A program made the position numbers and the translations under genes. A model generated the notes under the pieces. It was given only the letters and a program-made list of their open reading frames with translations. It was not told the DNA's origin and made no database searches. A stretch of DNA of 46,540 nt, from IMG/VR virus record IMGVR_UViG_2645727604_000006. One strand, 5' to 3'. This document shows positions 1,786 to 20,314 of this stretch, piece after piece (position 1 is the first letter of the stretch; every line of letters begins with the position of its first letter). This DNA is from a virus (taxonomy: Duplodnaviria; Heunggongvirae; Uroviricota; Caudoviricetes).

Positions 1786-1795
1786 GGAGTAAAAC

Positions 1796-2704: not shown

Positions 2705-2707
2705 TGC

Positions 2708-3040: not shown

Positions 3041-3043
3041 CCC

Positions 3044-3475
3044 ATGTCTTACGCCACACCGGAACAGTTCATCAGGGCGTTCAGTGAACGCGAGGCGTGC
3101 ACACTGACGGATGAAGAGATGACCGGGCTTATCAACGAGGAAAAGCTGGCCTCCGCGCTTGCGCGTGCCAGTGCCCAGATTGATGGCTATCTGGTGGGGC
3201 GTTACCGGACCCCGTGGCCTGACAGCCCGGGGATTCTGGTGGGTTACTGCTGCGATATCGCCCGTTATCACCTGGCGACCGATTACCGTATCTGCTCAGA
3301 AGAAATTCAGATGCGCTACCGGGACGCCATCCGCTTTCTGGAGAAAGTCGCGGCAGGACAAATCAACCTCGGGCGGGATACGTCCGGCAGCGTGATCCCG
3401 TCATCGTCACAGGTGCGTATCCGCTCCGGCTCCCGTCAGTTCGGGCGTGAGTCCACGCGGGGAGGTGCATTCTGA
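3044..3475 (+). CDS. Mu gp36-like head-tail protein (DUF1320-like)
   Basis: 143-aa ORF, ATG after AAGGAG; synteny with the Mu late region. Confidence 0.5.
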   Translation: MSYATPEQFIRAFSEREACTLTDEEMTGLINEEKLASALARASAQIDGYLVGRYRTPWPDSPGILVGYCCDIARYHLATDYRICSEEIQMRYRDAIRFLEKVAAGQINLGRDTSGSVIPSSSQVRIRSGSRQFGRESTRGGAF

Positions 3476-3528
3476 TTACTGAAATTGAACGGGCGCTGGT
3501 TGAACGTCTGCGTTGTGGTCTGGGGAAA

Positions 3529-4110
3529 ATGGTGCGGGAAGTCCGCACCTATGCAGGTGAACTGGATGAAGACCCGGGCCGGATTGTTCGCAGCCTTCCG
3601 GCAGTCTGGGTGACGTTCGGCGGCATCGCGAAAACCGAACGCTATTCCACGTCACGCCGGAAATACATTGCCACCGGACGCTTTGTGGTTGTGGTGGGTG
3701 ATTACAACACCCGCAGCGAACAAAGCGCCAGACAGGGAGGCACCGTCCGGGATGAGGTCGGTACAAACCTGCTGGTTGAATCCGTCCGTCGCCTGCTGAC
3801 CGGTCAGGATTTGGGGCTGGAGATTGATTATTTCGAACCCGGGCGTGTCAGGACGCTGTTTAACACCGGCGTGGCAGAGCGGGCAATGTCCGTGTTTGCC
3901 TGTGAGTTTGATACCCGCTGGGTGGAGCACGCGCTGGAGAACGGCAAATGGCCGGAGCGCGGTGCAGAAGCGGATATGGCTTTCAACCGTTACCACGGCC
4001 GTCTGTCAGACCCCGACCCGGATTTACTGCGAATTGGTACGCAATACGGCGCAGATATCTGTGGTCTGGATGAATTAAGAGAGCAACAGCATGAACAAAA
4101 TGAAGGTTAA
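3529..4110 (+). CDS. Mu gp37-like protein (DUF1834-like); true start probably upstream
   Basis: The reading frame stays open back to 3469 and encodes ITEIERALVERLRCGLGKMVRE, which looks protein-like. GGAGGTG sits at 3461-3467, so a non-ATG start (CTG 3472 or ATT 3475) overlapping the upstream stop is possible. The first ATG/GTG is at 3529. Confidence 0.5.
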   Translation: MVREVRTYAGELDEDPGRIVRSLPAVWVTFGGIAKTERYSTSRRKYIATGRFVVVVGDYNTRSEQSARQGGTVRDEVGTNLLVESVRRLLTGQDLGLEIDYFEPGRVRTLFNTGVAERAMSVFACEFDTRWVEHALENGKWPERGAEADMAFNRYHGRLSDPDPDLLRIGTQYGADICGLDELREQQHEQNEG

Positions 4111-4324
4111 GGCGGCTCCCGGGATGAAGTTCCCGATGGAGGATAACGCCCGGAAATACATCACCACGGAAGCGGTGATCGTTGAAAACACCGCTTATTA
4201 CCGGCGCGCTGTTCAGGATGGTGACCTGATTCTGGTGGCTGAAGAGCCTGAAACGGCAGAACAGGACACCGGACCAGAAAAAGCGAAGGCGAAGAAAGAG
4301 AAACAGGTGAGCTCCGATGAGTGA
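4091..4324 (+). CDS. small Mu gp38-like protein, lysine-rich acidic C-terminus
   Basis: 77-aa ORF overlapping the sheath gene start by 8 nt (translational coupling). Confidence 0.4.
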   Translation: MNKMKVKAAPGMKFPMEDNARKYITTEAVIVENTAYYRRAVQDGDLILVAEEPETAEQDTGPEKAKAKKEKQVSSDE

Positions 4325-5738
4325 AATTCAGTTTGACACCATTTCGGGCAGTATCCGTAAGCCCGGTGTGCATTTTGAGTTCAATACCCGGCTGGCCGTT
4401 AACACGTTGCCGGGTAACGAACAGCGTGTTCTGGTGATTGGTCCGATGCTGCCTGATGGCACCGCCACCCCCCTGAATGCGGTTTCCGTGTATTCCGAAG
4501 ACGAAGCGGATTTGTATTTCGGGGCCGGTTCACTGGCCGCAGCAATGGCGCGCGCGGCCATTAACGCCAACAGCTATCTGCAACTGGATGTTATCGGTAT
4601 TGCAGACGGTGGTGCAGGAAAAGCGGCAACAGGCGCAGTTAAAGTCACCGGCACTGCAACCAGCAGCGGTACGCTGTCGGTATGGATTGCTGGCGAGCAG
4701 ATCGCCATTAATGTGGACGTCGGGGATGAACCGTCGAAAATCATTCCGGCACTGGTGACGGCAATGACGCAGACGCCATCGCTTCTGGTCACGGGGGAAT
4801 ACAAATCTGACACCTCTCAACTGACAGTGACCGCCCGGACCAAAGGTACCTGGGGGAATGATATCACCCTGTCGGTATCCACCACTGCAACCGGCCTTGT
4901 AGTGGCTACCACGCCGATGGCGAGCGGCGAAATGGACCCGGATATTCAGCCCGCACTTGATGCGGTCTTTGCTGCCGGTCACAACATTCTGATTTGTCCG
5001 TTCAGTACCACGCCAGCCCTTGCCGCCCTGAAGCAGCACCTGGAGAAAACCGGGAACGCGATGGAACAGCGTGGCGCGATTGGTTGTGCGGGCTGGACAG
5101 GTAGTCTGGGAAACGGGATCACCCTGGCAGCCGGTGTGAACAGCGGGCGCGTGTCTGTCCCCTGGTATCGTGGTTCTGTGATGCTTCCTGCTGTGCTGGC
5201 CGCCATCTACGGCGCAGTAATGGCGAGCGAAGAAGACCCGGCACGCCCGCTGAACTCGCTGGCGCTGTCCGGGCTGGATGTGGTCGCCATGTCACAGCGC
5301 GAAAGCCGTAACGAGCAGGAAAGCGCCCTGCATAACGGCCTGACACCGGTTGAGGTTGGACCGGGTAATACGGTGCAGATTGTGCGTGCGGTCAGTACCT
5401 ACACGGTGAACGCTCAGGGTGTGGCTGATGTCTCGTTACTGGATATCACGTCCATCAGAACACTGGACTACACCCGTAAGGCGTGCCGCGAACGTATCAG
5501 CCTTCGCTTCCCGCGTGAAAAACTCAGCACCCGAACCATCGCAAAAGTGGAAAGCGAACTGTATGACGTGCTGCTCAAGCTGGAGGAGTCTGAAATTCTG
5601 GAGAATGTGGAAGCGAATAAGGCAAAACTGCGCGTTCAGCGAAACGGGAAAGATGCAAATCGCCTGGACTGCGCGATCCCTGCCGACGTGGTTAACGGCC
5701 TGCATGTGTTTGCCGGTCGCATCGACATGATTTTGTAA
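4317..5738 (+). CDS. tail sheath protein (Mu gpL-like)
   Basis: 473-aa ORF, the right size and position for a contractile-tail sheath, directly followed by the tube gene. Confidence 0.75.
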   Translation: MSEIQFDTISGSIRKPGVHFEFNTRLAVNTLPGNEQRVLVIGPMLPDGTATPLNAVSVYSEDEADLYFGAGSLAAAMARAAINANSYLQLDVIGIADGGAGKAATGAVKVTGTATSSGTLSVWIAGEQIAINVDVGDEPSKIIPALVTAMTQTPSLLVTGEYKSDTSQLTVTARTKGTWGNDITLSVSTTATGLVVATTPMASGEMDPDIQPALDAVFAAGHNILICPFSTTPALAALKQHLEKTGNAMEQRGAIGCAGWTGSLGNGITLAAGVNSGRVSVPWYRGSVMLPAVLAAIYGAVMASEEDPARPLNSLALSGLDVVAMSQRESRNEQESALHNGLTPVEVGPGNTVQIVRAVSTYTVNAQGVADVSLLDITSIRTLDYTRKACRERISLRFPREKLSTRTIAKVESELYDVLLKLEESEILENVEANKAKLRVQRNGKDANRLDCAIPADVVNGLHVFAGRIDMIL

Positions 5739-5750
5739 GGAGCCTGATAA

Positions 5751-6125
5751 ATGTCCCTGAAAGAATATATCGGCTCGATTGTGTTGGAAATTGACAGCCA
5801 GGAAATCGAGATCACCGACCTTGATGTTCAGATCAACACCGGGCGAAAGCTGGTCAAGACCATGAACAAAAGCGGCAGGGCTAAAGGCTTTGCCCGTGGC
5901 ATTGCCACCTACGAACTGTCCGTTTCGGCGGTTATTCCTGATACCAACGAGCCGGACTGGGAAAATCTGGAAGGTGTGAAAATCTCGCTGTACCCGCTCA
6001 GTAACAGCGGCAAACGCACCTCTTATCTGGACTGCTTCACAACCGAAGTGGGTGAGAAATACACCGTCGATAATGAAGCGAAAATTGATATCAAAATGGC
6101 TGCACTCAGGAAGGTGGAAGGATGA
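5751..6125 (+). CDS. tail tube protein (Mu gpM-like)
   Basis: 124-aa ORF after the sheath gene, with AAGGAG upstream. Confidence 0.7.
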   Translation: MSLKEYIGSIVLEIDSQEIEITDLDVQINTGRKLVKTMNKSGRAKGFARGIATYELSVSAVIPDTNEPDWENLEGVKISLYPLSNSGKRTSYLDCFTTEVGEKYTVDNEAKIDIKMAALRKVEG

Positions 6126-6505
6126 CGATTATCGCTACACAGACCGGCGAACTGTCCGATGGTCTGGTTTTTAACGGCACCATTCATAAAAACTTTGAGC
6201 TGCGTCTGCCGGTCATGCGTGATAACGGGCAGGCACTGGAAGAAACTGAAGAACGCTTTCAGACAGTGGACGGCTTCGCGGCGGATTATTACTACCGCTG
6301 TGCGGTAATGGCGGCAACGCTGGTCCGTCTGGGGGATATTCCGCAGGAAGAACTGACGGCGGAGCTGTTGCACGACAACATGACGCCGGAAGATTTTAAT
6401 ATTCTGCTGGCATCACGCAACGTCCTGAAGGTAAAGCGGAGCGGCGGGAATCCCGGCTCGCCGGACTCCGGCTCGCAGTCCTTATCCTCGGGCGCTACGG
6501 AATAA
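6122..6505 (+). CDS. tail assembly chaperone (Mu gp41/Y-like)
   Basis: 127-aa acidic protein between the tube and tape measure genes, the canonical chaperone position. Confidence 0.55.
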   Translation: MTIIATQTGELSDGLVFNGTIHKNFELRLPVMRDNGQALEETEERFQTVDGFAADYYYRCAVMAATLVRLGDIPQEELTAELLHDNMTPEDFNILLASRNVLKVKRSGGNPGSPDSGSQSLSSGATE

Positions 6506-6678
6506 CCGAAGAACAAATCATGACCATGAGCCGTCCCGAGCTGGACGGCTGGCTTGCCGCCGTTGACAGGCTGAACGGCGGCGGCTCAGGAAGAAAGGAC
6601 ACCTCACAGACCACCCGCCAGTCATTTAAATCCCTCAGAAAGAAACGCAGAAAAGGTAAACAGAAAAATGGCCGGTAA
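6400..6678 (+). other. -1 frame extension ORF downstream of the chaperone gene; candidate programmed-frameshift product
   Basis: The -1 frame is open from 6400 to the TAA at 6676-6678, overlaps the chaperone 3' end by 106 nt, and ends just as the tape measure gene starts (6668). It encodes ...ITEEQIMTMSRPELDGWLAAVDRLNGGGSGRKDTSQTTRQSFKSLRKKRRKGKQKNGR. The slip site is not identified. Confidence 0.35.
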
Positions 6679-8950
6679 TTTCAAAGTTGGCATGACCCTG
6701 ACTGCGAAGGACGAAGCCTCGCAGGTTCTGGAAAAGGGACAAAAACAGGTTATCAAAGCCACCGAAGGTGTAACAAAGGCAACCCGGAAGGCAGGTGCAG
6801 AGCAGACGCGTACCGGGCAGGAAAGCGTTAACAGCACGAAAAAGGCGGCAAAAGAGATACAGCGTGCCGCCCGTGCCCGGGAAACGCTCGGTATTCGTGC
6901 AGAACGCGAGATCCGGCGTGAAATTTATCAGACGGTTGCCAGCTATAACCGTCTGGCCCGCGCCGGTTTTGAATCTGCGCAGGAGCAGGAGCGCGCCATG
7001 CAGGCCACCCGGGAAAAAGCCCGGGCACTCAAGCGTGAACTGGATGGCGTCACTCAGGCTCAGATGAAGATGGCGAAAACGCCTGTTATCCCTGAACGGG
7101 GGCGTTTTGCCCGTGCGGCTGCATTTGGCGGGAATGCCATGACAATAGGCGGCGGAATTATGGCAGGAGCCGCCATTATGACGCAACCAGTCAGAAATCA
7201 AATGAGTTATGAACGTCAGCTCAGCATGATGGCGAACACGGCGTTCAGTGATGGTGGTCTGGAAGGCAGGCAGTTTGGGCGTGAAAAGCTGAAAAACAGT
7301 ATCCGCGCGGCGGTAACGTATGGTGGCGGAACGAAAGAGGATGCAGCTGAAGCAATGAATGAGATGTTGGCCAGCGGCGCTTTTTCCTGGGATACCGCGA
7401 ATAATCTCTTACCGCAGATTATGAAATTTGCTACTGCATCCGGCGCATCTCCACGCGATCTGGTCACTATGGCGGCCAAAGCTAAACAAACATTTGGACT
7501 GACAGATGACGACCTCCCGGCCATGTTTAATATGGCTGTCGCAGCAGGTAAAGCGGGTAATTTTGAGCTACGGGATATGGCGGAATATCTTGGACCTCAG
7601 ATGGCATTAGCTGGTAACGCCGGAATGAAAGGACTGGATGGACTCCAGAAATTACTGGCATTTAATGAGGTCGCAGGGATTGCCGCAGGCAGCAGCAGTG
7701 AAGCAGGTAATAACGTTGTAAACCTGCTGGCCAAACTTTTCAGTAGTGAATCAGCAACAAGGGCGAAAAGCATCACGATTGATGGCAAAGGTATTGATCT
7801 ACCTGGTACGTTGACCCGAGCTATGGAAAACGGCATTGATCCGATAGAAGCATTTTCACGCCTCACTGATAAAGTCACCGCGAACAACAAACAATATCAG
7901 GAGCTTCAGAAGCGTCTGGCAGCAACAAAAGACAAAGGCCAGCAGGACAAAATCCTAGAGTCTATGGCGAAAATTCTTGAGGGGTTCGGTGTTGGTGAGC
8001 TTGTTGGTGATATGCAGGCACTGAAGGCAATCCTGGCTTACAGGAATAACCCGGAATACCGAAAGCAGGTCGAAACTGAAATCAGTCAGCAACGCACCCT
8101 GCCGGAAGGTCAGCGCGCCGGAGATCTGGATTTTAAATTCATGTCAGGTACAAATGATTTTAAAACCGAACAGGCTAAAAACACGCTTGAATTTTCACAA
8201 ATGGACAGCGTGAAAAAGCTGGCGGATGCATCCGGTACTGTGGCCGATGCCATAAGCTGGGCGGGTGAAAAATTTCCGGGGCTGACCACAGCAGTGGTGG
8301 GTGCCACGACCGCAATTGAAGCGATGACCGCAGCGGCTCTGACATGGGCCGGGATCAAAATCCTGACCGGGGGTAAACCCGGTGGCAAGACTGACGAGGT
8401 TGTCGGTGATGTAATTGAAAACACGGTCAAAAAAGGCAAAGGATTTAAATTCCCCGGCATCGCCGGTAGCCTGCTTTCTTTCGGTGGCACCGTTACGGCA
8501 CTGGCCACTGCAACCAGCCCGGAAGAAGACGCCGCCGTCGAAGGAAGCGAGGAGCGCTGGAAAAATATACGGGCTAAATATCCTCAGTGGCTGATTGATG
8601 CTGCCCGTGAAAAATATCAGCCGTGGTGGCAGTTTGGCGAAGGTTACTCAACAGAAAACGAGAAATGGATCCAGCAGTATCTTGACGAACTGAAAAAAAC
8701 CGGGGTTATCGCCGGTGATTCTCTGCCAACACCAGAACAAGTCCGACAGCAAGCCGGAATGGCAGCGTCTGAAACGGCATCAAAGCAACCCGGACGCATC
8801 ACCCAGCCGGAATACCTTACGCACTGGGGGCCACCTGCCAGCCCCATTAATTTCACCACACAACTGGTGCTCGATGGTCAGGTCGTGGCGGAGGCAGTGA
8901 ACAAATACAACCTTCAGGACGGCAACAGAAGCACGGGAGGAACTTACTGA
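6668..8950 (+). CDS. tail tape measure protein (myovirus, Mu-like)
   Basis: 760-aa ORF, alanine/glycine-rich with predicted helical segments, downstream of the chaperone pair. Confidence 0.8.
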   Translation: MAGNFKVGMTLTAKDEASQVLEKGQKQVIKATEGVTKATRKAGAEQTRTGQESVNSTKKAAKEIQRAARARETLGIRAEREIRREIYQTVASYNRLARAGFESAQEQERAMQATREKARALKRELDGVTQAQMKMAKTPVIPERGRFARAAAFGGNAMTIGGGIMAGAAIMTQPVRNQMSYERQLSMMANTAFSDGGLEGRQFGREKLKNSIRAAVTYGGGTKEDAAEAMNEMLASGAFSWDTANNLLPQIMKFATASGASPRDLVTMAAKAKQTFGLTDDDLPAMFNMAVAAGKAGNFELRDMAEYLGPQMALAGNAGMKGLDGLQKLLAFNEVAGIAAGSSSEAGNNVVNLLAKLFSSESATRAKSITIDGKGIDLPGTLTRAMENGIDPIEAFSRLTDKVTANNKQYQELQKRLAATKDKGQQDKILESMAKILEGFGVGELVGDMQALKAILAYRNNPEYRKQVETEISQQRTLPEGQRAGDLDFKFMSGTNDFKTEQAKNTLEFSQMDSVKKLADASGTVADAISWAGEKFPGLTTAVVGATTAIEAMTAAALTWAGIKILTGGKPGGKTDEVVGDVIENTVKKGKGFKFPGIAGSLLSFGGTVTALATATSPEEDAAVEGSEERWKNIRAKYPQWLIDAAREKYQPWWQFGEGYSTENEKWIQQYLDELKKTGVIAGDSLPTPEQVRQQAGMAASETASKQPGRITQPEYLTHWGPPASPINFTTQLVLDGQVVAEAVNKYNLQDGNRSTGGTY

Positions 8951-10299
8951 TGGGCTGGGCTGAAAACCTGCAAAACGCCTCCTTTCGTGGCGTGCAGTTT
9001 GATGTACTGAACACGGATGAACAAATCAGCCGCGACCATGCGGTCTATGAATACCCGTTTGTTGACGGGGCGGATTTGCACGACCTCGGGCGCAAGGCGC
9101 GACCGTTCCGCATGACGGCGTTCCTGTGGGGGGAGTATTACGAATATAAACTCGAAAAGCTGATCGCCGCCCTGGACGAAGGCGGCGATGGTGAGCTGAT
9201 TCACCCGGTTTACGGCTCCGTACCGTCGGTGATTGTGACCGGCTACAGCATTCGCCATGACGCAGAAAGCCCGGACAGCTGCACCATCGACATGAGCTTT
9301 CTGGAGAACCGCACCGGTAGCGCGTTGTTCAGCACCCCGTTACCGGAGCTGTTCGCGCAACAGTTGTTTGATGAACTGGACACTTTACAGGCGCGGTTAA
9401 GTGATTTTTTTGATGCCGTTGCTGCACCTTTAAATACCGTTAACAGCATGATTAAAAAAGCCCAGACAGTGCGTGCCACACTGGTGAATACCCTGCTGTC
9501 TTTCAAAAGTGATTTTGTCTCCACTGTCGATAATATCGTGTCACTGGCAGGCGAACCCGGAAAATTTATCAATGAACTGGCAGAGGTGCTGGAAATCCAC
9601 ACATCAGATGTCGGGCAACCGGTGCCGGTTCTGCAACGTGTTGATTCTGCCACCCGGACCGGGTTGGCAGGAGAGACGACCGTCGCCAGTTCTGCGACAG
9701 TGATGAACTGCTGGAATAAGGTCATCACTGATATGGATGAATTTGTTGCGCTGCCTGTTGCCCTGGTCAGTGGCGATAAAGTACCGGAGGTGGTACTTCC
9801 TGCGGATGCCTCGCCAGACGATGTGCAGGATGTGAAAGCAGTTTACGCAACACAGGCCGCATCTGAACTGGCCAGTGTTGCAATGGCGATACTGGTTGAT
9901 GATGCGCAGTCAGAACAGCTTATACCGGCGGATATCGGGCGACTGGTCGGGGATGTGCGCACCCGCTTACAGGCTGCCATCACGCTGTTCCGTGAACGCT
10001 ATGAAGGCGAACGCGAACGGATAACCGAAACCGCATCACCGCTGGGGCTGATGTACCCGGAAATCATTCAGAGCATGAAAAACGTGGCGGCATCCGTGCA
10101 GGATGTCGGCCTGCTGGTTCTGTCACGCCGCCCACCGCTGACGCAGAAACAGGTGCAGGCGGACAGCTGTCTGCTGTTGCTGGCGTGGCAGTGGTACGGT
10201 GATTACAGTCGTGCGGCAGAACTGCAACGTCTGAACCCGCAGCTGCGTGACCCGAACAACATAACCGCCGGGGTGGTCATTAATGCCTACGCAAAATAA
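8950..10299 (+). CDS. Mu gpN-like DNA circulation protein
   Basis: 449-aa ORF directly after the tape measure gene (ATG overlaps its stop); the N-terminus matches the Mu N family pattern. Confidence 0.65.
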   Translation: MGWAENLQNASFRGVQFDVLNTDEQISRDHAVYEYPFVDGADLHDLGRKARPFRMTAFLWGEYYEYKLEKLIAALDEGGDGELIHPVYGSVPSVIVTGYSIRHDAESPDSCTIDMSFLENRTGSALFSTPLPELFAQQLFDELDTLQARLSDFFDAVAAPLNTVNSMIKKAQTVRATLVNTLLSFKSDFVSTVDNIVSLAGEPGKFINELAEVLEIHTSDVGQPVPVLQRVDSATRTGLAGETTVASSATVMNCWNKVITDMDEFVALPVALVSGDKVPEVVLPADASPDDVQDVKAVYATQAASELASVAMAILVDDAQSEQLIPADIGRLVGDVRTRLQAAITLFRERYEGERERITETASPLGLMYPEIIQSMKNVAASVQDVGLLVLSRRPPLTQKQVQADSCLLLLAWQWYGDYSRAAELQRLNPQLRDPNNITAGVVINAYAK

Positions 10300-11494
10300 C
10301 GAAGACAAAATCAGCCTGGTCATTGCCGGAAGGTCGCATTCTGACTGGAACAGTTATCGTATTGACAGCGATTTCCTGAAAGCTGCCGACGGCTGGCAGC
10401 TTCAGCTGGGGCTGCCTGAAAAGGTGTTCCCGGCGGATATCGTCCGGGGCGCACAAATCCGGTTGCAGGTGGGAGACGAAACGGTGCTCAGTGGGCGCAT
10501 AGACAGCGTGCGCCGCAGTGTATCCCGTCAGAGCTGCACGCTGACCCTGTCCGGGCGTGATGATGCCGCCATCCTGGTGGACTGTGCCGCGCCAGTGTTC
10601 AGCGCCAACCAGCTGACGCTGGACGAGGTCATCGACAGGATTGTCAGACCGCTGGGGATACAGCGCATCCGTATTCAGGCGTCCGGTGTGTCACGTAATG
10701 ACAAAGTCGTTATTGAGCCGGGGATGCGTGCGTGGGATGCACTGGCCAAAGCTGCCGCCGGTCGCGGCTTATGGCCGTGGTTTGAGCCTGACGGGACGCT
10801 GGTTGTGGGTGGCCCTGACTACACCACCACGCCGGTGGATACGCTGATTCTGAAGCTGAACGGCACCGGGAACAACGTGATGGAGCTGGACGATACCCGG
10901 TCCATTAACGGCTGTTTCTCCGAACTTACTGTGCTGGCCCAGAGCCACGCCCGCCGCGCAGACAGCAAGAAACAGGTGGCCGTGGTGCCGCTGGATATCT
11001 GGAACGAGGACGGCAGCGTGCGCACATTGTCCGGGCAGGACAGCGGTAATACGGACAGTGGCCAGACAGGCATTCATAACATGAAAGCCGTTGCCACCGA
11101 CCCCACCGTGGATTATTACCGCCCGCAGATAATCACCCAGGGCGACACCAGCAATCTGGAGCAAGTGAACTGGCGCGCAAAAAAAATGATGAGTGATGCC
11201 CGCCTGTCGGGGCTGGATATCGTCGCGCTGGTTGCAGGTCATCGCACGGCAGATGGTGTTCTGTGGCAGCCCGGCCAGCGGGTGCGGATTGTCAGCGAAC
11301 TCCACGGCATTGATGCCATCTTTTTCCTGATGGGGCGTGAGTTCAGCGGAGGCCGGAACGGGCAGACAACCCGGCTCCGCTTTAAGGAGGACGGCGTGTG
11401 GATACCTGATGCCTTCCCGCGCGAGAAGAAACGCCATCACCGCAGGGGCAAAAAGAAAAAAGAGGTCGCCATTGTTAAGGTCTGGGAGAAATGA
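10283..11494 (+). CDS. baseplate hub / tail protein (Mu gpP-like, P2 gpD-like)
   Basis: 403-aa ORF in the Mu P position. Confidence 0.65.
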   Translation: MPTQNNEDKISLVIAGRSHSDWNSYRIDSDFLKAADGWQLQLGLPEKVFPADIVRGAQIRLQVGDETVLSGRIDSVRRSVSRQSCTLTLSGRDDAAILVDCAAPVFSANQLTLDEVIDRIVRPLGIQRIRIQASGVSRNDKVVIEPGMRAWDALAKAAAGRGLWPWFEPDGTLVVGGPDYTTTPVDTLILKLNGTGNNVMELDDTRSINGCFSELTVLAQSHARRADSKKQVAVVPLDIWNEDGSVRTLSGQDSGNTDSGQTGIHNMKAVATDPTVDYYRPQIITQGDTSNLEQVNWRAKKMMSDARLSGLDIVALVAGHRTADGVLWQPGQRVRIVSELHGIDAIFFLMGREFSGGRNGQTTRLRFKEDGVWIPDAFPREKKRHHRRGKKKKEVAIVKVWEK

Positions 11495-12144
11495 TGTGGG
11501 ACAAAGTTAATCAGCGCGTACAGCAGGCACTGGCCGCCGTTCGCCAGGCATTCAGGGTGGTGACCGGTACGGTGGACAGTTCGACCAAAGTACAGCTGCT
11601 TCAGCTTAACGGGCTGGCAGGCGAACAGCTGGACGGTGCGGAGTATTTTCAGCATTACGGCCTCACCACATCCCCGCCGCCCGGCTCAATGGGTATTGCC
11701 GTTCCGCTGAACGGCAATACCTCCCATACTGTCGTGGTGGCCACAGAGCACGGCGCATATCGTCTGACGGAACTGAAACCCGGGGAAGTGGCCCTGTATA
11801 CCGATGAAGGCGCGAAAATCGTACTGAAGCGCGGACGGGTTATTGAAACCGAATGTGACGTTTATCGCGTGAAATGCAAACGCTACGAGGTTGAGGCAGA
11901 GGAGAACGCCACATTCACGACACCGTTACTGACAGCCAGTGACAGGCTGACGGTGGAAGGCAAAATCACCGGCAACGGTGGCATGGCCATCAGTGGGGGC
12001 AAGGGATACACTGCCACCTTTGAAGGCAATATCAACCATGTGGGTGGAGTGATTACCTCCGTTGACGTCACCATTAATGGCGTTAAAATCGGAACGCACA
12101 AACATCCAACCCCACACGGCATGTCTGACACGCCGGTTAATTAA
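11491..12144 (+). CDS. baseplate assembly/spike protein (Mu gp45-like, P2 gpV-like)
   Basis: 217-aa ORF with a glycine-rich beta region, in the Mu Q position. Confidence 0.6.
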   Translation: MMWDKVNQRVQQALAAVRQAFRVVTGTVDSSTKVQLLQLNGLAGEQLDGAEYFQHYGLTTSPPPGSMGIAVPLNGNTSHTVVVATEHGAYRLTELKPGEVALYTDEGAKIVLKRGRVIETECDVYRVKCKRYEVEAEENATFTTPLLTASDRLTVEGKITGNGGMAISGGKGYTATFEGNINHVGGVITSVDVTINGVKIGTHKHPTPHGMSDTPVN

Positions 12145-12197
12145 GTGCTGAACACCCTCACCTGATTCTGACCTGTCCATGCTGCCAGACTGGCGGC

Positions 12198-12548
12198 ATG
12201 GACCAGACGATTTCACCTGCAACCGGCGACTACGAACGCCGTCGGATTTATACCCTTCATAACGCGGTTTATCTGCGACTGGCGACGCCGCTTGGCAGTT
12301 ACTGGGCGGATGCGTCGCTGGGGTCACGCCTGCACGAGCTGAAGCGGGAAAAAGACGTTTCCCGTGTTCATAAGCTTGCGGCGCAGTATGCCAGCCAGGC
12401 ACTTCAGCCCCTGCTCGATGACGGGCGGGCAAAATCCATTACCGTTGACACAAAACCGGGGCAGCGCGGCTGGTTGTTGCTGTTAATCACCGTCACGGAT
12501 AACGCGGGCACACCGCAGACGTTTGAACACCCTGTGAGGATTATGTAA
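12198..12548 (+). CDS. baseplate protein (Mu gp46-like, P2 gpW-like)
   Basis: 116-aa ORF between the spike and J-like baseplate genes. Confidence 0.55.
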   Translation: MDQTISPATGDYERRRIYTLHNAVYLRLATPLGSYWADASLGSRLHELKREKDVSRVHKLAAQYASQALQPLLDDGRAKSITVDTKPGQRGWLLLLITVTDNAGTPQTFEHPVRIM

Positions 12549-13627
12549 TGCCGTTTCCTGTTCCGGGCGTTGCTGAAAACACAGAACGCCAGCTACGTGA
12601 TATCGCTAACGCCCTGCCGGGCGAAACCATCGACACCGGCGCTGACAGCGATTACCGCATTCGTGCAAATGCCGTATCCGGCGTGGCGGACGGACTGTAT
12701 ATGCATCAGGGGTGGATACTCCGTCAGGTGTTTCCTGATACGGCAGACCCTGAATATCTGGAGTTGCACTGCCGCACGCGCAATGTTTTTCGTAAAAAAG
12801 CAACGGCCTCATCCGGTCCGGCAGTGATTACCGGCACACCCGGTAAAACGCTGCCAGCCGGTGCGGAAATTCGTGGTGAAGGTGTCAGCGTGGCCACCGC
12901 AGCAGACTGCACCGTCGGTGATGAAGGCAGCGCAGAGGTGACGGTAAAAAGCACTGCCACGGGTGCACAGACGAATGCATCCACGACTCAGACGGCAACG
13001 CTGGTCAGCCCACCTGAAGGCATCAACAGCACGGTGACGATTAAATCCCTGACCGGCGGAACGGACAGGGAAAGCGACGCCGACCTGCTGGCGCGTTATC
13101 TGGATATTCTGCGCAGGCCGCCCGCTGGCGGTAATAAATATGATTACAAACGCTGGGCGCTGGAAGTGGATGGCGTTACGTCTGCGTATGTGGAGCCGTT
13201 GCGTCGTGGACTGGGGACGGTTGATGTGGCCATTACGTCAGCCAATGACCTCCCTTCGCAGGAACTGATTAATGCCGTGCTGGCACATATTGAGGAAGTC
13301 CGCCCGGTGACAGCGAAGGACACGATGGTGCTGGCCCCGACGAAAAAAGCCGTTGATTTCGTTGTCCGGGTAAAAACCAGTGGTCTTACTGTTGAACAGA
13401 TAAAACCACAGATAACTGAAGTTATCACGGATTTTATGAACCGGCTGGAGCCGGGGCAGGAATTAATTATTTCACAACTGGAAACTCAGATTTCATTAAT
13501 TTCTGGCGTCAGTGACCGGCGAATTATTATGCCGTCAGATAATGTAAAAGCAGTTGTCAATGAATCCACATGGGAGTGGCTGCGTCCGGGGAGTATTGAT
13601 ATCCAGCCATTTCCCCGGGAGAGTTAA
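12548..13627 (+). CDS. baseplate J-like protein (Mu gp47-like)
   Basis: 359-aa ORF whose ATG overlaps the previous stop; typical baseplate wedge size and position. Confidence 0.7.
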   Translation: MPFPVPGVAENTERQLRDIANALPGETIDTGADSDYRIRANAVSGVADGLYMHQGWILRQVFPDTADPEYLELHCRTRNVFRKKATASSGPAVITGTPGKTLPAGAEIRGEGVSVATAADCTVGDEGSAEVTVKSTATGAQTNASTTQTATLVSPPEGINSTVTIKSLTGGTDRESDADLLARYLDILRRPPAGGNKYDYKRWALEVDGVTSAYVEPLRRGLGTVDVAITSANDLPSQELINAVLAHIEEVRPVTAKDTMVLAPTKKAVDFVVRVKTSGLTVEQIKPQITEVITDFMNRLEPGQELIISQLETQISLISGVSDRRIIMPSDNVKAVVNESTWEWLRPGSIDIQPFPRES

Positions 13628-13630
13628 TAC

Positions 13631-14203
13631 ATGAATACGGTTGATTTATTTCGTGCCATGTTACCACCGGTCAGCTATGACCCGAACGGGAAATATATTT
13701 CAGCAGAACTGAACGCAGAAGCAGCCATTATGGATGAAGTAAAAGCGTCAGCTGCACGAGTGCTTGCATCTGTCACACCATTTTACGCATCCATGACGCT
13801 GTCTGACTGGGAACGAGTGTATGGAGTAATACCCCGCGACGGTGCCACACAGCAGGAACGCCGAGAAAATATTCTTATAAAGATGGCTGCAACTGGTGGG
13901 TTATCTATCCCTTATTTTAAACAACTTGCAGCCAGCCTCGGGTACACCATAACAATTACTGAACTTCATCCATTCAGAGCGGGGATAAACCGATGTGGTG
14001 ATCGTCTCTATATAACAGATGCCCGATGGATTTGGCAGGTTAATGTCACAGGAAGCAGAACGCCAGCCTACAGATTCAGAACCGGAGTATCTGCTGCCGG
14101 GGAGCCGTTACTTTCCTTTGGTGCCCCTGTACTGGAAGAAACATTTAAAGACCTTAAACCCGCTTTTACTTATTGCCATTTCACATATAAGGAGGAGCAG
14201 TAA
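13631..14203 (+). CDS. tail protein (Mu gp48-like, P2 gpI-like)
   Basis: 190-aa ORF between the baseplate J gene and the tail fibre gene. Confidence 0.6.
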
Positions 14204-15027
14204 TGCAAAATCTGATGCCCCCGATAAATACACCGGATCAATTGTTTCATGATGGTGACCCCACTCAGGGGATAGAAGGAACCCTCGTGACTGCTGGTTA
14301 TTTAAACAATCAGCAGGGGGCAACCCGTGATTTACAGCAGGAACTCCTTAATGTTCTTGGTGGTGCACATATTCAACCTGACCCCAAAAAAACGGATCAG
14401 CTACTTACCGCGCTTCGCGCGTTGCTGTTAAGCCGCAAAAATCCGTTTGGCGATATCAAATCGGACGGCACAGTACCAACGGCTCTCGAAAACCTTGGTT
14501 TGGGAGAAGGTGCTCCAGCTATTGGCGTTCCGTTCTTCTGGCCGTCCGCAGCAATGCCAGATACCGTAATCGATAGCTGGTCCAGCATGGTGTTTTTGAA
14601 GTTCAACGGCGCGAAATTCTCTGCCACTGATTACCCTGTGCTGGCGAAAGTGTTTCCGGCGCTGGCATTACCTGACGCACGCGGTGATTTCATTCGTATC
14701 TGGGATGACGGGCGCGGGATTGATGTCGGACGTACCCTACTTTCAGGGCAATCACACACAATTATGGATCATGCACACAATATGGAATTGTGGACGGGGG
14801 ACGGGCTTGCCGCAGGAAGTGCACGGGAAGGAGTAAACCCAGGAATACTGGCTACATATGGTGACGGGGGAATAGTTAAAACGGACGAACCCGGTCTTAA
14901 GGTGCCTTCCTCACTACGAGCTCTTAGCTCTCGTAGTGTTAAACGTTATGGTGAAATTAGTGGACATGTAGGTACAGAAACCCGTCCACGAAATATTGCA
15001 TTTAACTTTCTGGTGAGGGCTAAATAA
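14203..15027 (+). CDS. tail fibre protein: constant N-terminal part fused to the currently expressed variable part
   Basis: 274-aa ORF. The crossover site at 14484-14509 lies inside the gene (about codon 94-102). The C-terminus [16 protein letters not shown] resembles tail-fibre tips. Confidence 0.75.
14484..14509 (+). repeat. left crossover site of the invertible segment (gix/cix/hix-like)
   Basis: TCTCGAAAACCTTGGTTTGGGAGAAG. The core TTGGTTTGGGAGAAG (14495-14509) recurs as its exact reverse complement at 16379-16393. Confidence 0.65.
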
Positions 15028-15620
15028 TGAAACCTGTTTTTGATGAAAATGGGCTGGCTACAGTGCCGGGTGATATGCGTTGTTTTTATTATGATGCAGT
15101 AACGTCTGAATATACGGGCTGGTCTGATGAATATATTAATACTGGCGTAAGTATGCCCGCCTGTTCCACTGGTATTGACCCGGGCGAATACATTCCGGGG
15201 AAAGTGGCAGTATTTACGGGTAAGGGATGGCGCCATGAAGAAGACCACCGCAATGAGACTGTTTACTCAATCGAAAATGGCGCAGCTGTTACAGTGGATT
15301 ATATCGGTGCCATCAAAGACGGTTATGTCACGCTTTCACCGTTAACGCCATACGATAAATGGGATGGTGAGAAATGGGTGACGGATACCGAGGCACAGCA
15401 TAGCGCCGCACTAGACGCGGCAGAAGTAAAGCGCCAGTCGCTGATTGATGCTGCAATGGCTTCCATCAGTCTGATTCAGCTGAAATTACGAGCCGGGCGG
15501 AAGCTGACGCAGGCAGAAACCACCCGACTTAACGCTGTGCTGGATTACATTGACGCGGTGGAGGCAACAGATACCAGCACCGCGCCTGATGTCATCTGGC
15601 CTGAACTGCCGGAGGCGTAG
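15027..15620 (+). CDS. tail fibre assembly chaperone (Tfa, U-like)
   Basis: 197-aa ORF immediately after the fibre gene. Its C-terminus (LDYIDAVEATDTSTAPDVIWPELPEA) is paralogous to that of the minus-strand Tfa. Confidence 0.75.
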   Translation: MKPVFDENGLATVPGDMRCFYYDAVTSEYTGWSDEYINTGVSMPACSTGIDPGEYIPGKVAVFTGKGWRHEEDHRNETVYSIENGAAVTVDYIGAIKDGYVTLSPLTPYDKWDGEKWVTDTEAQHSAALDAAEVKRQSLIDAAMASISLIQLKLRAGRKLTQAETTRLNAVLDYIDAVEATDTSTAPDVIWPELPEA

Positions 15621-16032
15621 GCCATTCAATATCTGGCGCACCGGAAGTATCGACCAGTTCCAGTGCGTCCAGATAATCCAGCCACAAATTATATTGCGCC
15701 AGTTCCTCACCTTTCAGGCGACCAATCGCCGCTTTACCAGGCCATTGCTTACTGTTTATGTATTCGTTGACCTGATTAATCAATTGCTGCTTTTCCAGTT
15801 CGGCTGCGGCAATTTGTTCCTCATGAGTTGGCGGTGGAATATCAATCCATGCAGGCATTCCGTCGATGACACCTCTGTATTTTCCTTCTGGTGCTTCCTT
15901 CATAAATTCGGCGGCAACAGTGTCGTCAATTTCGATTCCATCATCGGGCCATTCACCGGATTCCTGATAAGCGATTTTAAGCTCCACAGGGAAAAACGCA
16001 TTTTTATCGGCACTGAAAATATATTTCTGCAT
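15592..16032 (-). CDS. alternative tail fibre assembly chaperone (U'-like)
   Basis: 146-aa ORF ending LDYLDALELVDTSGAPDIEWPTPPAVQAR, convergent with the + Tfa and overlapping it by 29 bp. Confidence 0.7.
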   Translation of the reverse strand: MQKYIFSADKNAFFPVELKIAYQESGEWPDDGIEIDDTVAAEFMKEAPEGKYRGVIDGMPAWIDIPPPTHEEQIAAAELEKQQLINQVNEYINSKQWPGKAAIGRLKGEELAQYNLWLDYLDALELVDTSGAPDIEWPTPPAVQAR

Positions 16033-16034
16033 TT

Positions 16035-16433
16035 CTACCGTCCTATCGAAATATAACTGAATCTGTATTGCTGTGAGATATCACTGGTTGCCACACGCCA
16101 CGCTGAATTACTGATATGTTCAAAATTTACAGACAAAACCTGCGGGGCAGGATTCGACGGGTCTGACTGAACGGCATCAGACATAACACTGACTGAAACC
16201 ATCGGCTGATTAGGGAATGGTATAGGGAAGTGTCCACTGATAAAGCGGGTCGTGTTTCCTGAAAAAGTGCCAAACTGAACAATATATCCACCTGGTAGCC
16301 TGAACCATCCCGAACCAGAAGCGAATGCTCCCATATCCGGTATCTGATTATCTCCTGTGCCCACATCCCTTTTCGCCGCTTCTCCCAAACCAACGTTTAA
16401 GAAAATGCAGAGATTACGGCTAACTGGCATCAT
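16035..16433 (-). CDS. alternative tail-fibre variable segment (S'-like); silent in this orientation
   Basis: Minus-strand ORF running through the right crossover site. It encodes NVGLGEAAKRD at the site, matching [10 protein letters not shown] in the + fibre gene. No constant N-terminal part is attached in this orientation. Confidence 0.6.
   Translation of the reverse strand: MMPVSRNLCIFLNVGLGEAAKRDVGTGDNQIPDMGAFASGSGWFRLPGGYIVQFGTFSGNTTRFISGHFPIPFPNQPMVSVSVMSDAVQSDPSNPAPQVLSVNFEHISNSAWRVATSDISQQYRFSYISIGR
16379..16405 (+). repeat. right crossover site of the invertible segment, inverted
   Basis: CTTCTCCCAAACCAACGTTTAAGAAAA, whose reverse complement contains TTGGTTTGGGAGAAG. Confidence 0.65.
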
Positions 16434-16460
16434 CTCCGGTTTTTATTCAGGGGGATGCTC

Positions 16461-16556
16461 ATGCTTATTGGCTATGTACGCGCATCAACAAATGACCAGG
16501 ACACCGATTTACAACGCAATGCGTTGAACTGTGCAGGATATGAGCTGATTTTTTGA
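16461..16556 (+). pseudogene. truncated Din-family serine DNA invertase (Gin/Pin/Cin-like); only the first 31 codons remain
   Basis: Encodes MLIGYVRASTNDQDTDLQRNALNCAGYELIF then TGA, which matches the conserved N-terminus of Gin/Pin/Cin invertases (MLIGYVRVSTNDQ...). Similarity stops near codon 31; downstream sequence is unrelated. Confidence 0.75.
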
Positions 16557-16592
16557 GGGTAAATCATCAGCATGAGACTAATAATTTAGCGT

Positions 16593-16652
16593 CCAATTCT
16601 GGGCTTTTTGGTTGCGCTCTCTCCGCCCAGAATTGTGCGCCAATTAGCCCAG
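16593..16652. promoter_or_regulatory. palindromic repeat cluster in the junction region; candidate operator or hairpin
   Basis: CCAATTCTGGGC (16593-16604) with an 11-bp perfect inverted partner GCCCAGAATTG (16625-16635), 20-bp spacer. A third partial copy CCAATTAGCCCAG at 16640-16652. Confidence 0.3.
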
Positions 16653-17253
16653 AAAAAAACGCGAAGTTACAAACCGTTTGTCGCAACAGCTGGTGGTCAG
16701 TGTCGCTGCACACCTGTTGTTACGGCATGAATGCAGATTACCAAATCACCTGGCTGTAAGTAACCACAGAGAACTTTACCTGACTGTGGGGGGCGAGTTG
16801 TGCAGGAACTTAACCGCTGGTTTCGTGACGGAAGAGGACTTTATGTTCATGTTATTCGTTGGGAGCCAGAAACACAGCGCGTTATCTATCTTCGCAAAGA
16901 CTACCCGCATGAGTGCTTTAGTCCTTTGTGGAAATTCAGGCGTGATTTTGTTGAGTGTGAAGGACCACCAGCATATTGATTCTGCAATTCCGGGACGTTA
17001 CACTGTTCAGGCACCTTATAAAGCGGGTGCCGGGATTGGCGTCCTGAAATTGTCAACGGCGATGTATGACGCGCCAGCGTCTTTTTTATCGTCCGCATTT
17101 GCTCACATCCAGATTATGGTGGGCTGGGCGGGGGCACCGAAAGGTGCGCCGGTCTCCGTTGACGCCGGTTACGCCAACCCCGTCCAGTTCACCACCAGTG
17201 AAATTGGCGTTTCCGGTGGTGGAAGTTTTTCACTGTCAACGGAGGCTGCCATC

Positions 17254-17811
17254 ATGGCTACGATCCAAGCCCTCACTCAACCTGAAATCACCATTGACAA
17301 CGGCCAGGCCGTTACCACTTCTTTGGCTGTTGCCAACTTCTTCTCCAAGCGTCACGACGATGTGCTGAAAAAGATCCGCACTCTGGATTGTTCCCCTGAG
17401 TTTTGTGCCCGCAATTTTGCGGAGACATCGATTTCGGTAAATCAACCGAACGGTGGTACACGCAAGCTCCCTTGCTATCAAATCACACGAGACGGTTTTG
17501 CGTTTCTTGCTATGGGTTTCACGGGTAAACGTGCTGCCCGGTTCAAAGAGGCATACATCAATGCCTTTAACCAGATGGAAAAACTGCTTTCAAAGCCATC
17601 CACGCTGAGCGATGCCGCAGATAACGCCAGCGTGCTTTACTCCCACCTGTCGGTAATCCACAAGGTCTGGCTGCAGCAGCTTTATCCTATGTTGGCAAAA
17701 GCTGAATCTCCGCTGGCTGTTAGCTTATATGATTATATTAATGATGCTTCGGCGCTGGCCTGCCTCATAAATTTGTCGCTGAACCCTTCAGAGGTAAGGG
17801 GGCGCAAATGA
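17254..17811 (+). CDS. Rha-family phage regulatory protein
   Basis: The N-terminus MATIQALTQPEITIDNGQAVTTSLAVANFFSKRHDDVLKKIR fits the Rha pattern. GGAGG at 17241-17245 lies 8 nt before the ATG. The frame is open much further upstream (track ORF from 16678), but that part does not look protein-like. Confidence 0.6.
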   Translation: MATIQALTQPEITIDNGQAVTTSLAVANFFSKRHDDVLKKIRTLDCSPEFCARNFAETSISVNQPNGGTRKLPCYQITRDGFAFLAMGFTGKRAARFKEAYINAFNQMEKLLSKPSTLSDAADNASVLYSHLSVIHKVWLQQLYPMLAKAESPLAVSLYDYINDASALACLINLSLNPSEVRGRK

Positions 17812-18032
17812 TCCGGAATATTTTCAAACGGTTTACCAATCAGACTTTCCGTTGTCCTCGTCCGGGTCAGTGGTACACCACACCTGCAGGGCATGTTCTA
17901 CGTGTTAGCCTGGTTGACCGTGAATGTCAGAAGGTGATTTGTGAACCGCTGGGCCGTAATTACCGCGTCAGTATGCCGCTTATAGCCTTTCGCTCCGGAA
18001 AAAACATGAAGCATCTCGGAGGTGCTGCATGA
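17808..18032 (+). CDS. hypothetical small phage protein
   Basis: 74-aa ORF translationally coupled to both neighbours (ATGA overlaps). Confidence 0.35.
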   Translation: MIRNIFKRFTNQTFRCPRPGQWYTTPAGHVLRVSLVDRECQKVICEPLGRNYRVSMPLIAFRSGKNMKHLGGAA

Positions 18033-18847
18033 GTATGGAGCTGATGGTTAAAGCGATGAAAATTCGAGTGGGTAATCCATTGCGAAAACTGGTTCTGATC
18101 AAGCTGGCTGATAATGCCAGCGATCAGGGGGAGTGCTGGCCCAGCTACCAGCATATTGCTGACCAGTGCGAGATTAGCAAACGTTCTGTGATGAATCATA
18201 TTGCGGCCCTTTGTGAGTCCGGGCTGGTAAAAAAAGTCACCCGGAAAGGTGAAAAAGGTAACTCAAGTAATATCTATCTCCTTCATCTGGATGGTGCAGG
18301 AGATTCACTAGGGGGTAGTGCAAATAATTCACTATCTGGCGCAGCAAATTCACCAGGTAGTGCAGGAGTTGCACCAGGGGGTAGTGCAGGAGATTCACCC
18401 AGAACCAGTCACTCTTTTGAACCAGTCAAAGAACCAGTCAATGAACCAATAGCTGTTGGTGCATCAGTTGATGAGTCTGTGCGAGTTCGTTCAAACCGAC
18501 CGGAATACTCTCCGGAGTTTGAGCAGGCATGGCTGGCATATCCCAAACGTGCTGGTGGCAATTCAAAATCTGCAGCCTTCAAAGCCTGGAAAGCCCGTTT
18601 GAATGAGGGGGTAAACCCCGAAACCATGCTGGAAGGTGTGAAACGCTACGCGGGCTGGGTATCTGCGATGGGTAACAGCGGCACACAATTTGTGAAACAG
18701 GCTGTCACGTTCTTTGGTCCGGATCGTCATTTCGAAGAATCCTGGGAAGTTCCTGCGGTATCTGCAGCCAGACGTGAGGACCCGTACTTCAAAGCCAGTT
18801 ACGACAACGTGGACTACAGCCAGATCCCGGCAGGATTCAGGGGGTGA
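18029..18847 (+). CDS. putative replication initiator / winged-helix DNA-binding protein with an internal repeat-encoded linker
   Basis: The N-terminus (LRKLVLIKLADNASDQGECWPSYQHIADQCEISKRSVMNHIAALCESGLVKK) looks like a wHTH. A low-complexity linker is encoded by DNA repeats. The C-terminal domain contains AWLAYPKR. The architecture is analogous to lambda O with ori iterons inside the gene. Confidence 0.45.
   Translation: MSMELMVKAMKIRVGNPLRKLVLIKLADNASDQGECWPSYQHIADQCEISKRSVMNHIAALCESGLVKKVTRKGEKGNSSNIYLLHLDGAGDSLGGSANNSLSGAANSPGSAGVAPGGSAGDSPRTSHSFEPVKEPVNEPIAVGASVDESVRVRSNRPEYSPEFEQAWLAYPKRAGGNSKSAAFKAWKARLNEGVNPETMLEGVKRYAGWVSAMGNSGTQFVKQAVTFFGPDRHFEESWEVPAVSAARREDPYFKASYDNVDYSQIPAGFRG
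18293..18440 (+). repeat. iteron-like direct repeats inside the initiator gene; candidate origin
   Basis: GGTGCAGGAGATTCAC at 18293-18308 and 18383-18398. GTAGTGCA three times. ATTCAC four times. GAACCAGTCA at 18402, 18419 and 18431. Confidence 0.4.
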
Positions 18848-18849
18848 TC

Positions 18850-19338
18850 ATGAGTCTTTTGAATGAAGTTCAGAAATACATTGAAGCCCATCCGGGGTGT
18901 ACTTCCGGAGACATTGCGGATGCTTTTGCAGGTTACTCACGGCAGCGCGTTCTGCAGTATGCAAGCAAGTTACGTCAGAGTGGGCGTGTGGCTCACCGTT
19001 GTGAAGGAGATACACGCAGACATTTCCCGCGCCTGACTGAGAGAGCGCAGGAGCTGGAACCACAACCAGTTCGTGAAACCAGACCTGTGCGCAATTTCTA
19101 TGTCGGCACTAACGACCCGCGGGTGATTTTGTGCCTGACCCGCCAGGCGGAAGAACTGGAGTCAAGGGGCTTATACCGTCGTGCTGCAACCGTGTGGATG
19201 GCGGCATTCCGTGAAAGCCACTCCCAGCCAGAACGAAACAATTTTCTGGCACGTCGTGAGCGGTGCTTACGGAAAAGCAGCAAGCGCGCTGCATCGGGTG
19301 AAGAGTGGTATCTGTCAGGGAATTACGTGGGGGCTTAA
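18850..19338 (+). CDS. PerC-like (Pch-like) transcriptional regulator with an N-terminal wHTH-like region
   Basis: The C-terminal motif ELESRGLYRRAATVWMAAF...RRERCLRK resembles the PerC family signature (ELESKGLWRRAA.RWL) as recalled. AGGGGG precedes the ATG at 18850. Confidence 0.45.
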   Translation: MSLLNEVQKYIEAHPGCTSGDIADAFAGYSRQRVLQYASKLRQSGRVAHRCEGDTRRHFPRLTERAQELEPQPVRETRPVRNFYVGTNDPRVILCLTRQAEELESRGLYRRAATVWMAAFRESHSQPERNNFLARRERCLRKSSKRAASGEEWYLSGNYVGA

Positions 19339-19991
19339 TGAGTAATAAATATTGCCGGGCGCTGGTGGAACTGCGGAACAAACCAGCCCATGAACTGAAG
19401 GAAGTGGGCGATCAGTGGCGCACGCCGGATAACATTTTCTGGGGAATTAACACCCTGTTTGGCCCGTTTGTCCTGGATCTGTTTACTGACGGTGATAACG
19501 CCAAATGTACCGCGTATTACACGGCGGAAGACAACGCGCTGGCGCATGACTGGTCAGAACGTCTTGCGGAGCTTAAAGGTGCTGCCTTTGGTAATCCCCC
19601 ATACAGCCGCGCCAGTCAGCATGAGGGGCAATACATCACCGGCATGCGTTACATCATGAAACATGCCAGTGCCATGCGTGATAAAGGCGGGCGCTATGTT
19701 TTCCTGATCAAAGCTGCCACCTGCGAAGTGTGGTGGCCGGAAGATGCAGATCATATTGCTTTTATTCGCGGGCGTATTGGTTTTGAACTGCCTGCCTGGT
19801 TTATCCCGAAAGATGAGAAGCAGGTGCCGACAGGCGCTTTCTTCGCTGGTGCTATTGCTGTTTTCGACAAGACCTGGAAGGGACCGGCAATCAGCTACAT
19901 CGGGCGCGATGAACTTGAGGCATGTGGTGAGGCGTTTCTGGCGCAGGTTCGCCAGCAGGCAGAAAAACTGGTCAGGGAGATGGCGGCATGA
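19338..19991 (+). CDS. phage N6-adenine DNA methyltransferase (phage Dam-like)
   Basis: Catalytic motif FGNPPY; about 218 aa; nin-region position. The ATG at 19338 overlaps the upstream TAA. Confidence 0.75.
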   Translation: MSNKYCRALVELRNKPAHELKEVGDQWRTPDNIFWGINTLFGPFVLDLFTDGDNAKCTAYYTAEDNALAHDWSERLAELKGAAFGNPPYSRASQHEGQYITGMRYIMKHASAMRDKGGRYVFLIKAATCEVWWPEDADHIAFIRGRIGFELPAWFIPKDEKQVPTGAFFAGAIAVFDKTWKGPAISYIGRDELEACGEAFLAQVRQQAEKLVREMAA

Positions 19992-20314
19992 CGACGTTAA
20001 CTCAATGCCAGCAGCAGGTGCTGGATATGCTGATTTCTTATCAGAAAGAACGTGGCTTCCCGCCAACCAATCAGGAGGTGGCAACCATGCTGGGATACCG
20101 TTCAGTGAATGCAGCGGTGGAGCATCTTCGCGCACTGGAGAAAAAAGGCGTCATCACGATAAAGCGTGGCGTGGCCCGGGGGATCACGCTTCATACCGCG
20201 GTGAAGGACGACGACAGCGAGGCGGTCGGGATTATCCGCTCACTGCTTGCCGGTGAGGAAAACGCAAGGCTGCGTGCAACCCACTGGTTACATGAGAGAG
20301 GCTTGAAAGCATGA
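19988..20314 (+). CDS. LexA-like DNA-binding domain protein lacking the S24 peptidase domain
   Basis: 108 aa. The N-terminus LTQCQQQVLDMLISYQKERGFPPTNQEVATMLGYRSVNAAVEHLRALEKKGVI resembles the LexA N-terminal wHTH. No Ser/Lys peptidase domain follows. Confidence 0.55.
   Translation: MTTLTQCQQQVLDMLISYQKERGFPPTNQEVATMLGYRSVNAAVEHLRALEKKGVITIKRGVARGITLHTAVKDDDSEAVGIIRSLLAGEENARLRATHWLHERGLKA

Follow-up and report, generated by a model that had tools for sequence, protein, structure and literature searches.

The DNA analysed here, hereafter the window, is a stretch of 46,540 nucleotides that makes up the entire contig JHSB01000047.1 of the short-read draft assembly GCA_001265765.1. Three elements follow one another along it, all on the + strand. 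Positions 1 to 98 are, by their matches to ISEc12 ends, the right end of this IS21-family element, just downstream of istB; matches to ISEc12 ends covering window positions 1 to ~110 occur in 1,789 genomes. Positions 99 to 16671 are the rightmost ~16.6 kb of a transposable Mu-like prophage, recognized by Pfam matches and by homology to the Mu-like prophage of E2348/69, and positions 16672 to 46540 belong, again by homology and Pfam assignment, to a lambdoid prophage that begins just after ymfL. The Mu-like portion encodes the protease gpI, the major head protein gpT, sheath, tape measure, a gpN-like protein, the baseplate proteins gp45-48, and tail fibre. These Mu-type late genes stand in Mu order, match the Pfam families Mu-like_Pro, Phage_sheath, PhageMin_Tail, DNA_circ_N, Phage_Mu_Gp45, GP46, Baseplate_J, and Phage_Mu_Gp48, and are 97.5% identical to the late region of the E2348/69 prophage over 14.6 kb. 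Homology to that prophage begins at position 99, ISEc12 having inserted between gpG and the gene for the protease, 46 bp past the stop codon of gpG. The genes for terminase, portal, gpF, and gpG therefore lie beyond ISEc12, outside the window. Structural modules of both phage types are present, as the sequence-only reading had claimed on the same DNA, but the Mu-like one is incomplete here. The same left contig break and the same junction with lambdoid DNA recur in a second assembly, GCA_001265315.1, identical at 15,792 of 15,793 bases. The ISEc12 insertion accounts for the break in both drafts, and, because the contig breaks there, the left half of the Mu-like prophage and its left junction fall on other contigs.

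Toward its right end, the Mu-like prophage carries an invertible tail-fibre segment of 1.9 kb, a G-segment analogue at 14490 to 16398, bounded by crossover sites at 14490-14509 and 16379-16398 that form an inverted 20-nt repeat (95% complementary). On the + strand, a fibre gene at 14203-15027, whose C-terminus lies within the segment, is followed by an assembly gene at 15027-15620, and the − strand carries an alternative pair at 15592-16032 and 16035-16433. Pfam matches in the segment (Caudo_TAP twice and Gp53-like_C) identify two tail-fibre-assembly genes and alternative fibre C-termini. Alleles of this cassette (14203-16433) are mosaic among the relatives and are common to P2-like phages of E. 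coli, Klebsiella, and Salmonella. Comparison of the fibre cassettes of six prophages, which are not independent of one another, gave no inverted matches, all shared parts having the same orientation, and this uniformity is consistent with a segment that may have become frozen.

Beside the segment, starting 63 nt past the right crossover site, lies what remains of an invertase gene, a serine DNA-invertase pseudogene stub at 16461 to 16571 (+ strand) supported by its ORF, a Pfam match, and a DNA alignment. Read from the ATG at 16455 or 16461, the ORF translates to MLIGYVRASTNDQDTDLQRNALNCAGYELIF and matches the Pfam Resolvase N-terminus (E 5.8e-4), and, as the sequence-only reading had noted, 31 in-frame codons from 16461 precede a stop (16554-16556), whereas a serine invertase runs to ~190 aa and comprises a complete resolvase catalytic domain as well as an HTH at its C-terminus. 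That reading had also seen no invertase homology past codon 31 and had placed the junction inside the gene, two points that the DNA alignment overturns. From the upstream crossover site through 16571, the DNA can be aligned to the invertase gene of a P2-like prophage, which is intact and encodes 196 aa. Relative to that gene, an additional T in the T-run at 16549-16554 creates the stop, and there is a further 2-nt indel. The homology thus runs on out of frame to 16571, about codon 37 of the intact invertase, and is followed by 100 bp of phage DNA before the junction is reached. The invertase gene is therefore frameshifted and, at about codon 37, also truncated. A BLASTN comparison with relatives, envisaged earlier as a way to find intact copies, is borne out in part: intact invertases are present in P2-like prophages, but in megablast alignments these match the left side only to ~16571, and none continues beyond. 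Annotations of TUM1881, F163, 2824, E2348/69, and CFS3292 list this stub as a partial CDS of 93 nt, and it is thus present in all five relatives with the fibre cassette, F163 included; Ecol_AZ146, whose copy lies in a CP4-like island, is not among them. In these five, the stub stands 100 bp inside the right end of prophages at unrelated sites, so truncation of the invertase did not make the junction. Rather, the stub is an older, lineage-wide scar, produced by internal deletion and decay, and not a breakpoint.

A residual function for the stub can be imagined. The recombinational enhancer of Mu lies inside gin, and the stub extends to ~180 bp from the crossover site. In the hin system, the distance between a 65-bp Fis-dependent enhancer and a crossover site is about 100 bp (PMC3798978). 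By analogy, the 111-nt stub may persist as the carrier of a Fis-dependent enhancer, with the intact crossover sites flippable in trans by a Pin/Gin-type invertase, although we consider this improbable. The donor of such an invertase could be a co-resident P2-like or e14-like prophage, and host range would then depend on the other prophages in the cell.

The 100 bp that follow the stub, 16572 to 16671 (+ strand), are the right terminus (attR) of the Mu-like phage, as shown by its repeats and by the same end base in relatives. The octamer TTCTGGGC occurs at 16597-16604 (+), 16625-16632 (−), and 16647-16654 (−), all within 75 bp of the right end, and these are its only three copies in the 46.5-kb window. 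Counted from the outside in, the copies begin at positions 18, 40, and 68, the last being inverted, as is the R3 site of Mu. At the left end of the relatives the corresponding positions are 18, 92, and 143, so that the first copy stands at position 18 from both termini. The 35.7-kb E2348/69 prophage contains seven copies, only one of them outside the ends. Based on this position and repetition, the TTCTGGGC elements are putative transposase-binding sites, and their arrangement resembles that of Mu attL/attR. The terminus closes with CA at 16670-16671, its final letters being ...GAAGTTACA, and the relatives' element starts with TGTGGGG, giving TG...CA ends overall. Five genomes (TUM1881, 2824, E2348/69, CFS3292, and Ecol_AZ146) end at exactly the same base. 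No DNA similarity was detected between this right end and that of phage Mu. More distant members of the family (~91-93% identity, in strains C5 and Z1323CEC0011) have a variant left-end repeat, TTCTGGAC, and another, longer fibre module that lacks the invertible cassette.

Megablast searches of 5,426 complete E. coli genomes place the boundary between the two prophages to the base: left-side homology stops at 16671 and right-side homology starts at 16672. The whole junction region was found together in none of the 5,426, the exact right junction is absent from the GTDB representative genomes, and no record was found for the 377-aa junction-proximal ORF. Among the complete genomes, three match the window up to 16671 at the end of a ~35-kb prophage, followed by an interrupted chromosomal gene (scpC in TUM1881, a phn ABC gene in F163, and hyfB in 2824), whereas from 16672 rightwards the matches are to lambdoid prophages, with identity up to 100%.

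About 1% of the complete E. coli genomes (~60 of 5,426) carry the Mu-like family. Its targets include scpC (TUM1881), hyfB (2824), eutC (E2348/69), mhpT (CFS3292), a CP4-like island (Ecol_AZ146), and the phn operon (F163), and in the simple insertions the halves of the target gene flank an element of ~35.2-35.7 kb; the E2348/69 copy in eutC, for example, occupies NC_011601.1 2715936-2751670. The relatives have a CI-type repressor near the transposase genes at the left end. In TUM1881, the early genes encode a repressor, a ner-like HTH protein, a 680-aa protein annotated with a Mu transposase C-terminal domain, an AAA ATPase, GemA, and Mor, and they are followed by genes for lysis, terminase, a DUF935 portal, gpF, gpG, protease, gpT, sheath, tape measure, baseplate, the fibre cassette, and the stub. 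After the 93-nt stub the element ends, with scpC halves on both sides. The E2348/69 transposase matches HTH_Tnp_Mu_1 and Mu-transpos_C in Pfam and is adjoined by a MuB-like AAA_22/TniB ATPase. All five simple insertions of the family are flanked by 4-bp target duplications, measured against the uninterrupted K-12 sequence for TATC (scpC) and CATC (hyfB) and read from the flanks for CACT (eutC), ATTC (mhpT), and CTGG (CP4-island). A 5-bp duplication was considered and rejected, as the native K-12 hyfB and scpC sequence gives 4 bp; nor is the 4-bp length a new feature, since the annotation of LC727895.1 already gives a different E. coli Mu-like phage a duplication of this size.

Of the six relatives examined, five are simple insertions whose duplications are intact. 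The sixth, F163 (NZ_OY754349.1), has a truncated phnJ on its left and a truncated phnL on its right, ~1.1 kb of phnJ-K-L is missing, and there is no duplication; its terminal phage base is also altered, the end reading ACT instead of ACA. This is a deletion of flanking DNA that followed insertion. In Ecol_AZ146 (NZ_CP018991.1), the Mu-like copy lies between a DUF987 (yeeT-like) gene and cbeA of the CP4-like integrative island, a second case of the family in a mobile element, and its fibre region is rearranged. The siblings TUM1881, 2824, CFS3292, F163, and Ecol_AZ146, like the E2348/69 prophage itself, differ from the window's prophage in their targets, in their fibre-cassette alleles, and in lacking ISEc12, but the right terminus, stub, and end repeats of the E2348/69 prophage are identical to the window's. 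In the literature library searched, the Mu-like prophage of E2348/69 was not described.

To the right of the junction, the lambdoid DNA is 99.8-100% identical to the prophages of UTAK-1 and others from 16672 onward. In intact relatives such as UTAK-1, an XRE repressor, a cro-like HTH protein, and ymfL precede the DNA that starts at 16672, with the integrase and immunity region immediately upstream of ymfL, and the insertion point lies 17 nt after the ymfL stop. Neither an integrase nor a cI/cro-like immunity region is present in the window, in keeping with the earlier observation that int and repressor are missing at the junction. The same reading had described ~700 bp of gene-free DNA here, an interval that in fact holds the Mu-like terminus (16572-16671), a DUF4222 ORF at 16800-16979 (+ strand; E 9e-14), and the Ash domain (E 2e-20) of an Ash-Rha gene at ~16843 or 16957 to 17811 (+ strand). 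In the residue numbering of the longer window ORF, Pfam puts Ash at 108-203 and Rha at 213-302. Beyond these, Pfam identifies a replication protein at 18029-18847 (+ strand), and further lambdoid genes encode PerC-like, Dam, RusA, KilA-N, DUF968, Q, methylase, and lysis proteins, the gpA terminase, portal, head, and the tail series V...H...J. The Pfam families of this region include HTH_36/DnaD_N, RusA, Phage_antitermQ, GpA_ATPase/nuclease, Phage_portal_2, lambda TTP, TMP_2/Tape_meas_lam_C, and gpJ domains. The PerC-family protein (Pfam PF06069) is encoded at 18844-19338; among the members of this family are proteins that activate the LEE island of EPEC and EHEC. The product of 19988-20314 has 108 aa and contains a LexA DNA-binding domain. 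In relatives, a PGAP model of a 386-aa "Rha family" protein starts 21 nt before the insertion point, which would have the insertion disrupt rha. This reading is probably wrong: the first ~100 codons of the model contain no domain and overlap the DUF4222 ORF in another frame. For the same reason the insertion site is more likely intergenic, between ymfL and DUF4222/ash-rha, and the real Rha product is probably the shorter two-domain Ash+Rha protein starting near 16843-16957.

Collectively, these comparisons indicate that 16671/16672 is a transposition junction, and we consider it probable that the locus is a simple nested insertion in which a ~35-kb Mu-like phage entered a resident lambdoid prophage between ymfL and DUF4222/ash-rha. 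The record of the relatives, five of six being simple insertions, is the reason for preferring this model for the window. The incoming phage would have carried a c repressor, a ner-like gene, a MuA-type transposase, a MuB-type ATPase, gemA/mor, a Mu-type head, sheath, and baseplate, and an invertible fibre segment. Its transposase would bind the TTCTGGGC sites at both ends and join the terminal CA-3' to target DNA cut with a stagger of 4 bp, so that AACC at 16672 to 16675 (+ strand) is the predicted right-hand copy of the target duplication, by extension from the relatives. The older internal deletion took away the remainder of the invertase gene together with whatever followed it, and would have left the fibre segment frozen in one orientation. 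The Mu-like left end is expected upstream of the window start, at a distance of ~19 kb and one ISEc12 copy, and beyond it, on another contig, the lambdoid arm with int, repressor, cro, and ymfL; the left junction should pass from ymfL-AACC into TGTGGGGTAGTG, reading ...TTAACGGCAAATAACC followed directly by TGTGGGGTAGTGATCAATTCTGGGCGG.... Searches of genome and metagenome collections for this predicted left junction, with a 4- or 5-bp duplication allowed, did not find it. The sequence-only reading had offered, as the second of two alternatives, the insertion of a Mu-like element into a lambdoid prophage, and the phage terminus and the insertions of the relatives indicate that this was right in essence. 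It had further invoked a deletion to explain the missing lambdoid left arm; none is needed, because an insertion of the Mu type places that arm beyond the Mu-like left end, off the contig.

Three other histories of the junction were weighed. In the first, the Mu-like end is genuine but the lambdoid left arm has since been lost or moved, as could happen by intramolecular (replicative) transposition, by ISEc12-mediated rearrangement, or by a later deletion on the left side. This history matches the part of the sequence-only reading in which the inserted element is then deleted against the lambdoid prophage. That flanking DNA can be lost after insertion is clear from F163 and its missing ~1.1 kb of phn DNA, and in the window an ISEc12 copy already interrupts the Mu-like prophage and the left junction lies off the contig. 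However, the intact duplications in the other relatives speak against such a loss, the terminal CA of the window is intact, unlike that of F163, and nothing in the window requires a deletion; we therefore regard this course as unlikely, though credible. The second, the first alternative of the sequence-only reading, holds that tandem prophages were fused by a deletion that removed the invertase end together with the lambdoid left arm. The truncated invertase near the junction and the absence of int and repressor from the window would fit such an event, but the stub and the next 100 bp are a normal right end in five genomes at unrelated loci, and Mu-like phages have, to our knowledge, neither an att site nor a mechanism for tandem integration. 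Because the Mu-like side runs through to its final base, as an arbitrary deletion would not leave it, a tandem fusion is unsupported and very improbable. Finally, an assembly chimera of two prophage contigs, suggested by the short-read draft source and by contig ends that both lie in repeats, and anticipated earlier as an artifact that might explain the junction, is scarcely believable given that the second assembly carries the identical junction, that no repeat is shared at the join, and that a break exactly at the terminal CA would not be expected.

A simple nested insertion would leave current understanding unchanged, as it is an ordinary event of its kind. Its value lies in part in annotation, where the prophage boundary is fixed at 16671/16672 and the broken invertase is shown not to be a rearrangement scar, and in part in documenting a Mu-like lineage with 4-bp target duplications and no working invertase. 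The lambdoid prophage, now interrupted by foreign DNA of at least 35 kb, can probably no longer package itself as one unit. The Mu-like lineage has no close sequenced phage isolate, yet it is present in the reference EPEC strain E2348/69. By protein, the closest phage records are Klebsiella ST405-OXA48phi1.1, Pseudomonas VW-6B, Haemophilus SuMu, and Mannheimia 3927AP2, with sheath proteins at most 60% and transposases at most 49% identical, and megablast detected no DNA similarity to phage records outside the fibre cassette.

Compared with Mu itself (NC_000929.1), the family shares the gene order, MuA/MuB-type genes, the Mu-type head, sheath, and baseplate, random insertion, an invertible fibre segment that adjoins an invertase gene close to the right end, and TG...CA ends, each with three repeats. 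It differs in that its ends have no detectable DNA similarity to those of Mu, its duplication is 4 bp rather than 5 bp, its invertase is only a stub in the window's lineage, and there is no com/mom counterpart; moreover, the Mu right end lies ~1 kb after gin, whereas the window's lies 100 bp after the stub. Target duplications are 5 bp in Mu and 6 bp in B3 (PMC8705779). Mu-like phages nested in lambdoid and Stx prophages have already been published, and the event is known to be fairly common in E. coli: in STEC CC119, 6 of 10 Mu-like phages reside inside mobile elements, including several Stx phages (PMC10132054), and GenBank LC727895.1 annotates a Mu-like phage inside an Stx1a phage with a 4-bp duplication. 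The window thus adds one more case of a Mu-like phage landing in another mobile element. A close parallel in arrangement is provided by the Sp18-like Mu-like phages of STEC CC119 (PMC10132054; LC727895.1, LC727881.1), which are also nested in Stx and other lambdoid prophages and also flanked by a 4-bp duplication, but which represent a different Mu-like lineage, with a transposase ~44% identical, unrelated ends (TGTAACC...CTATA), and another host prophage and site.
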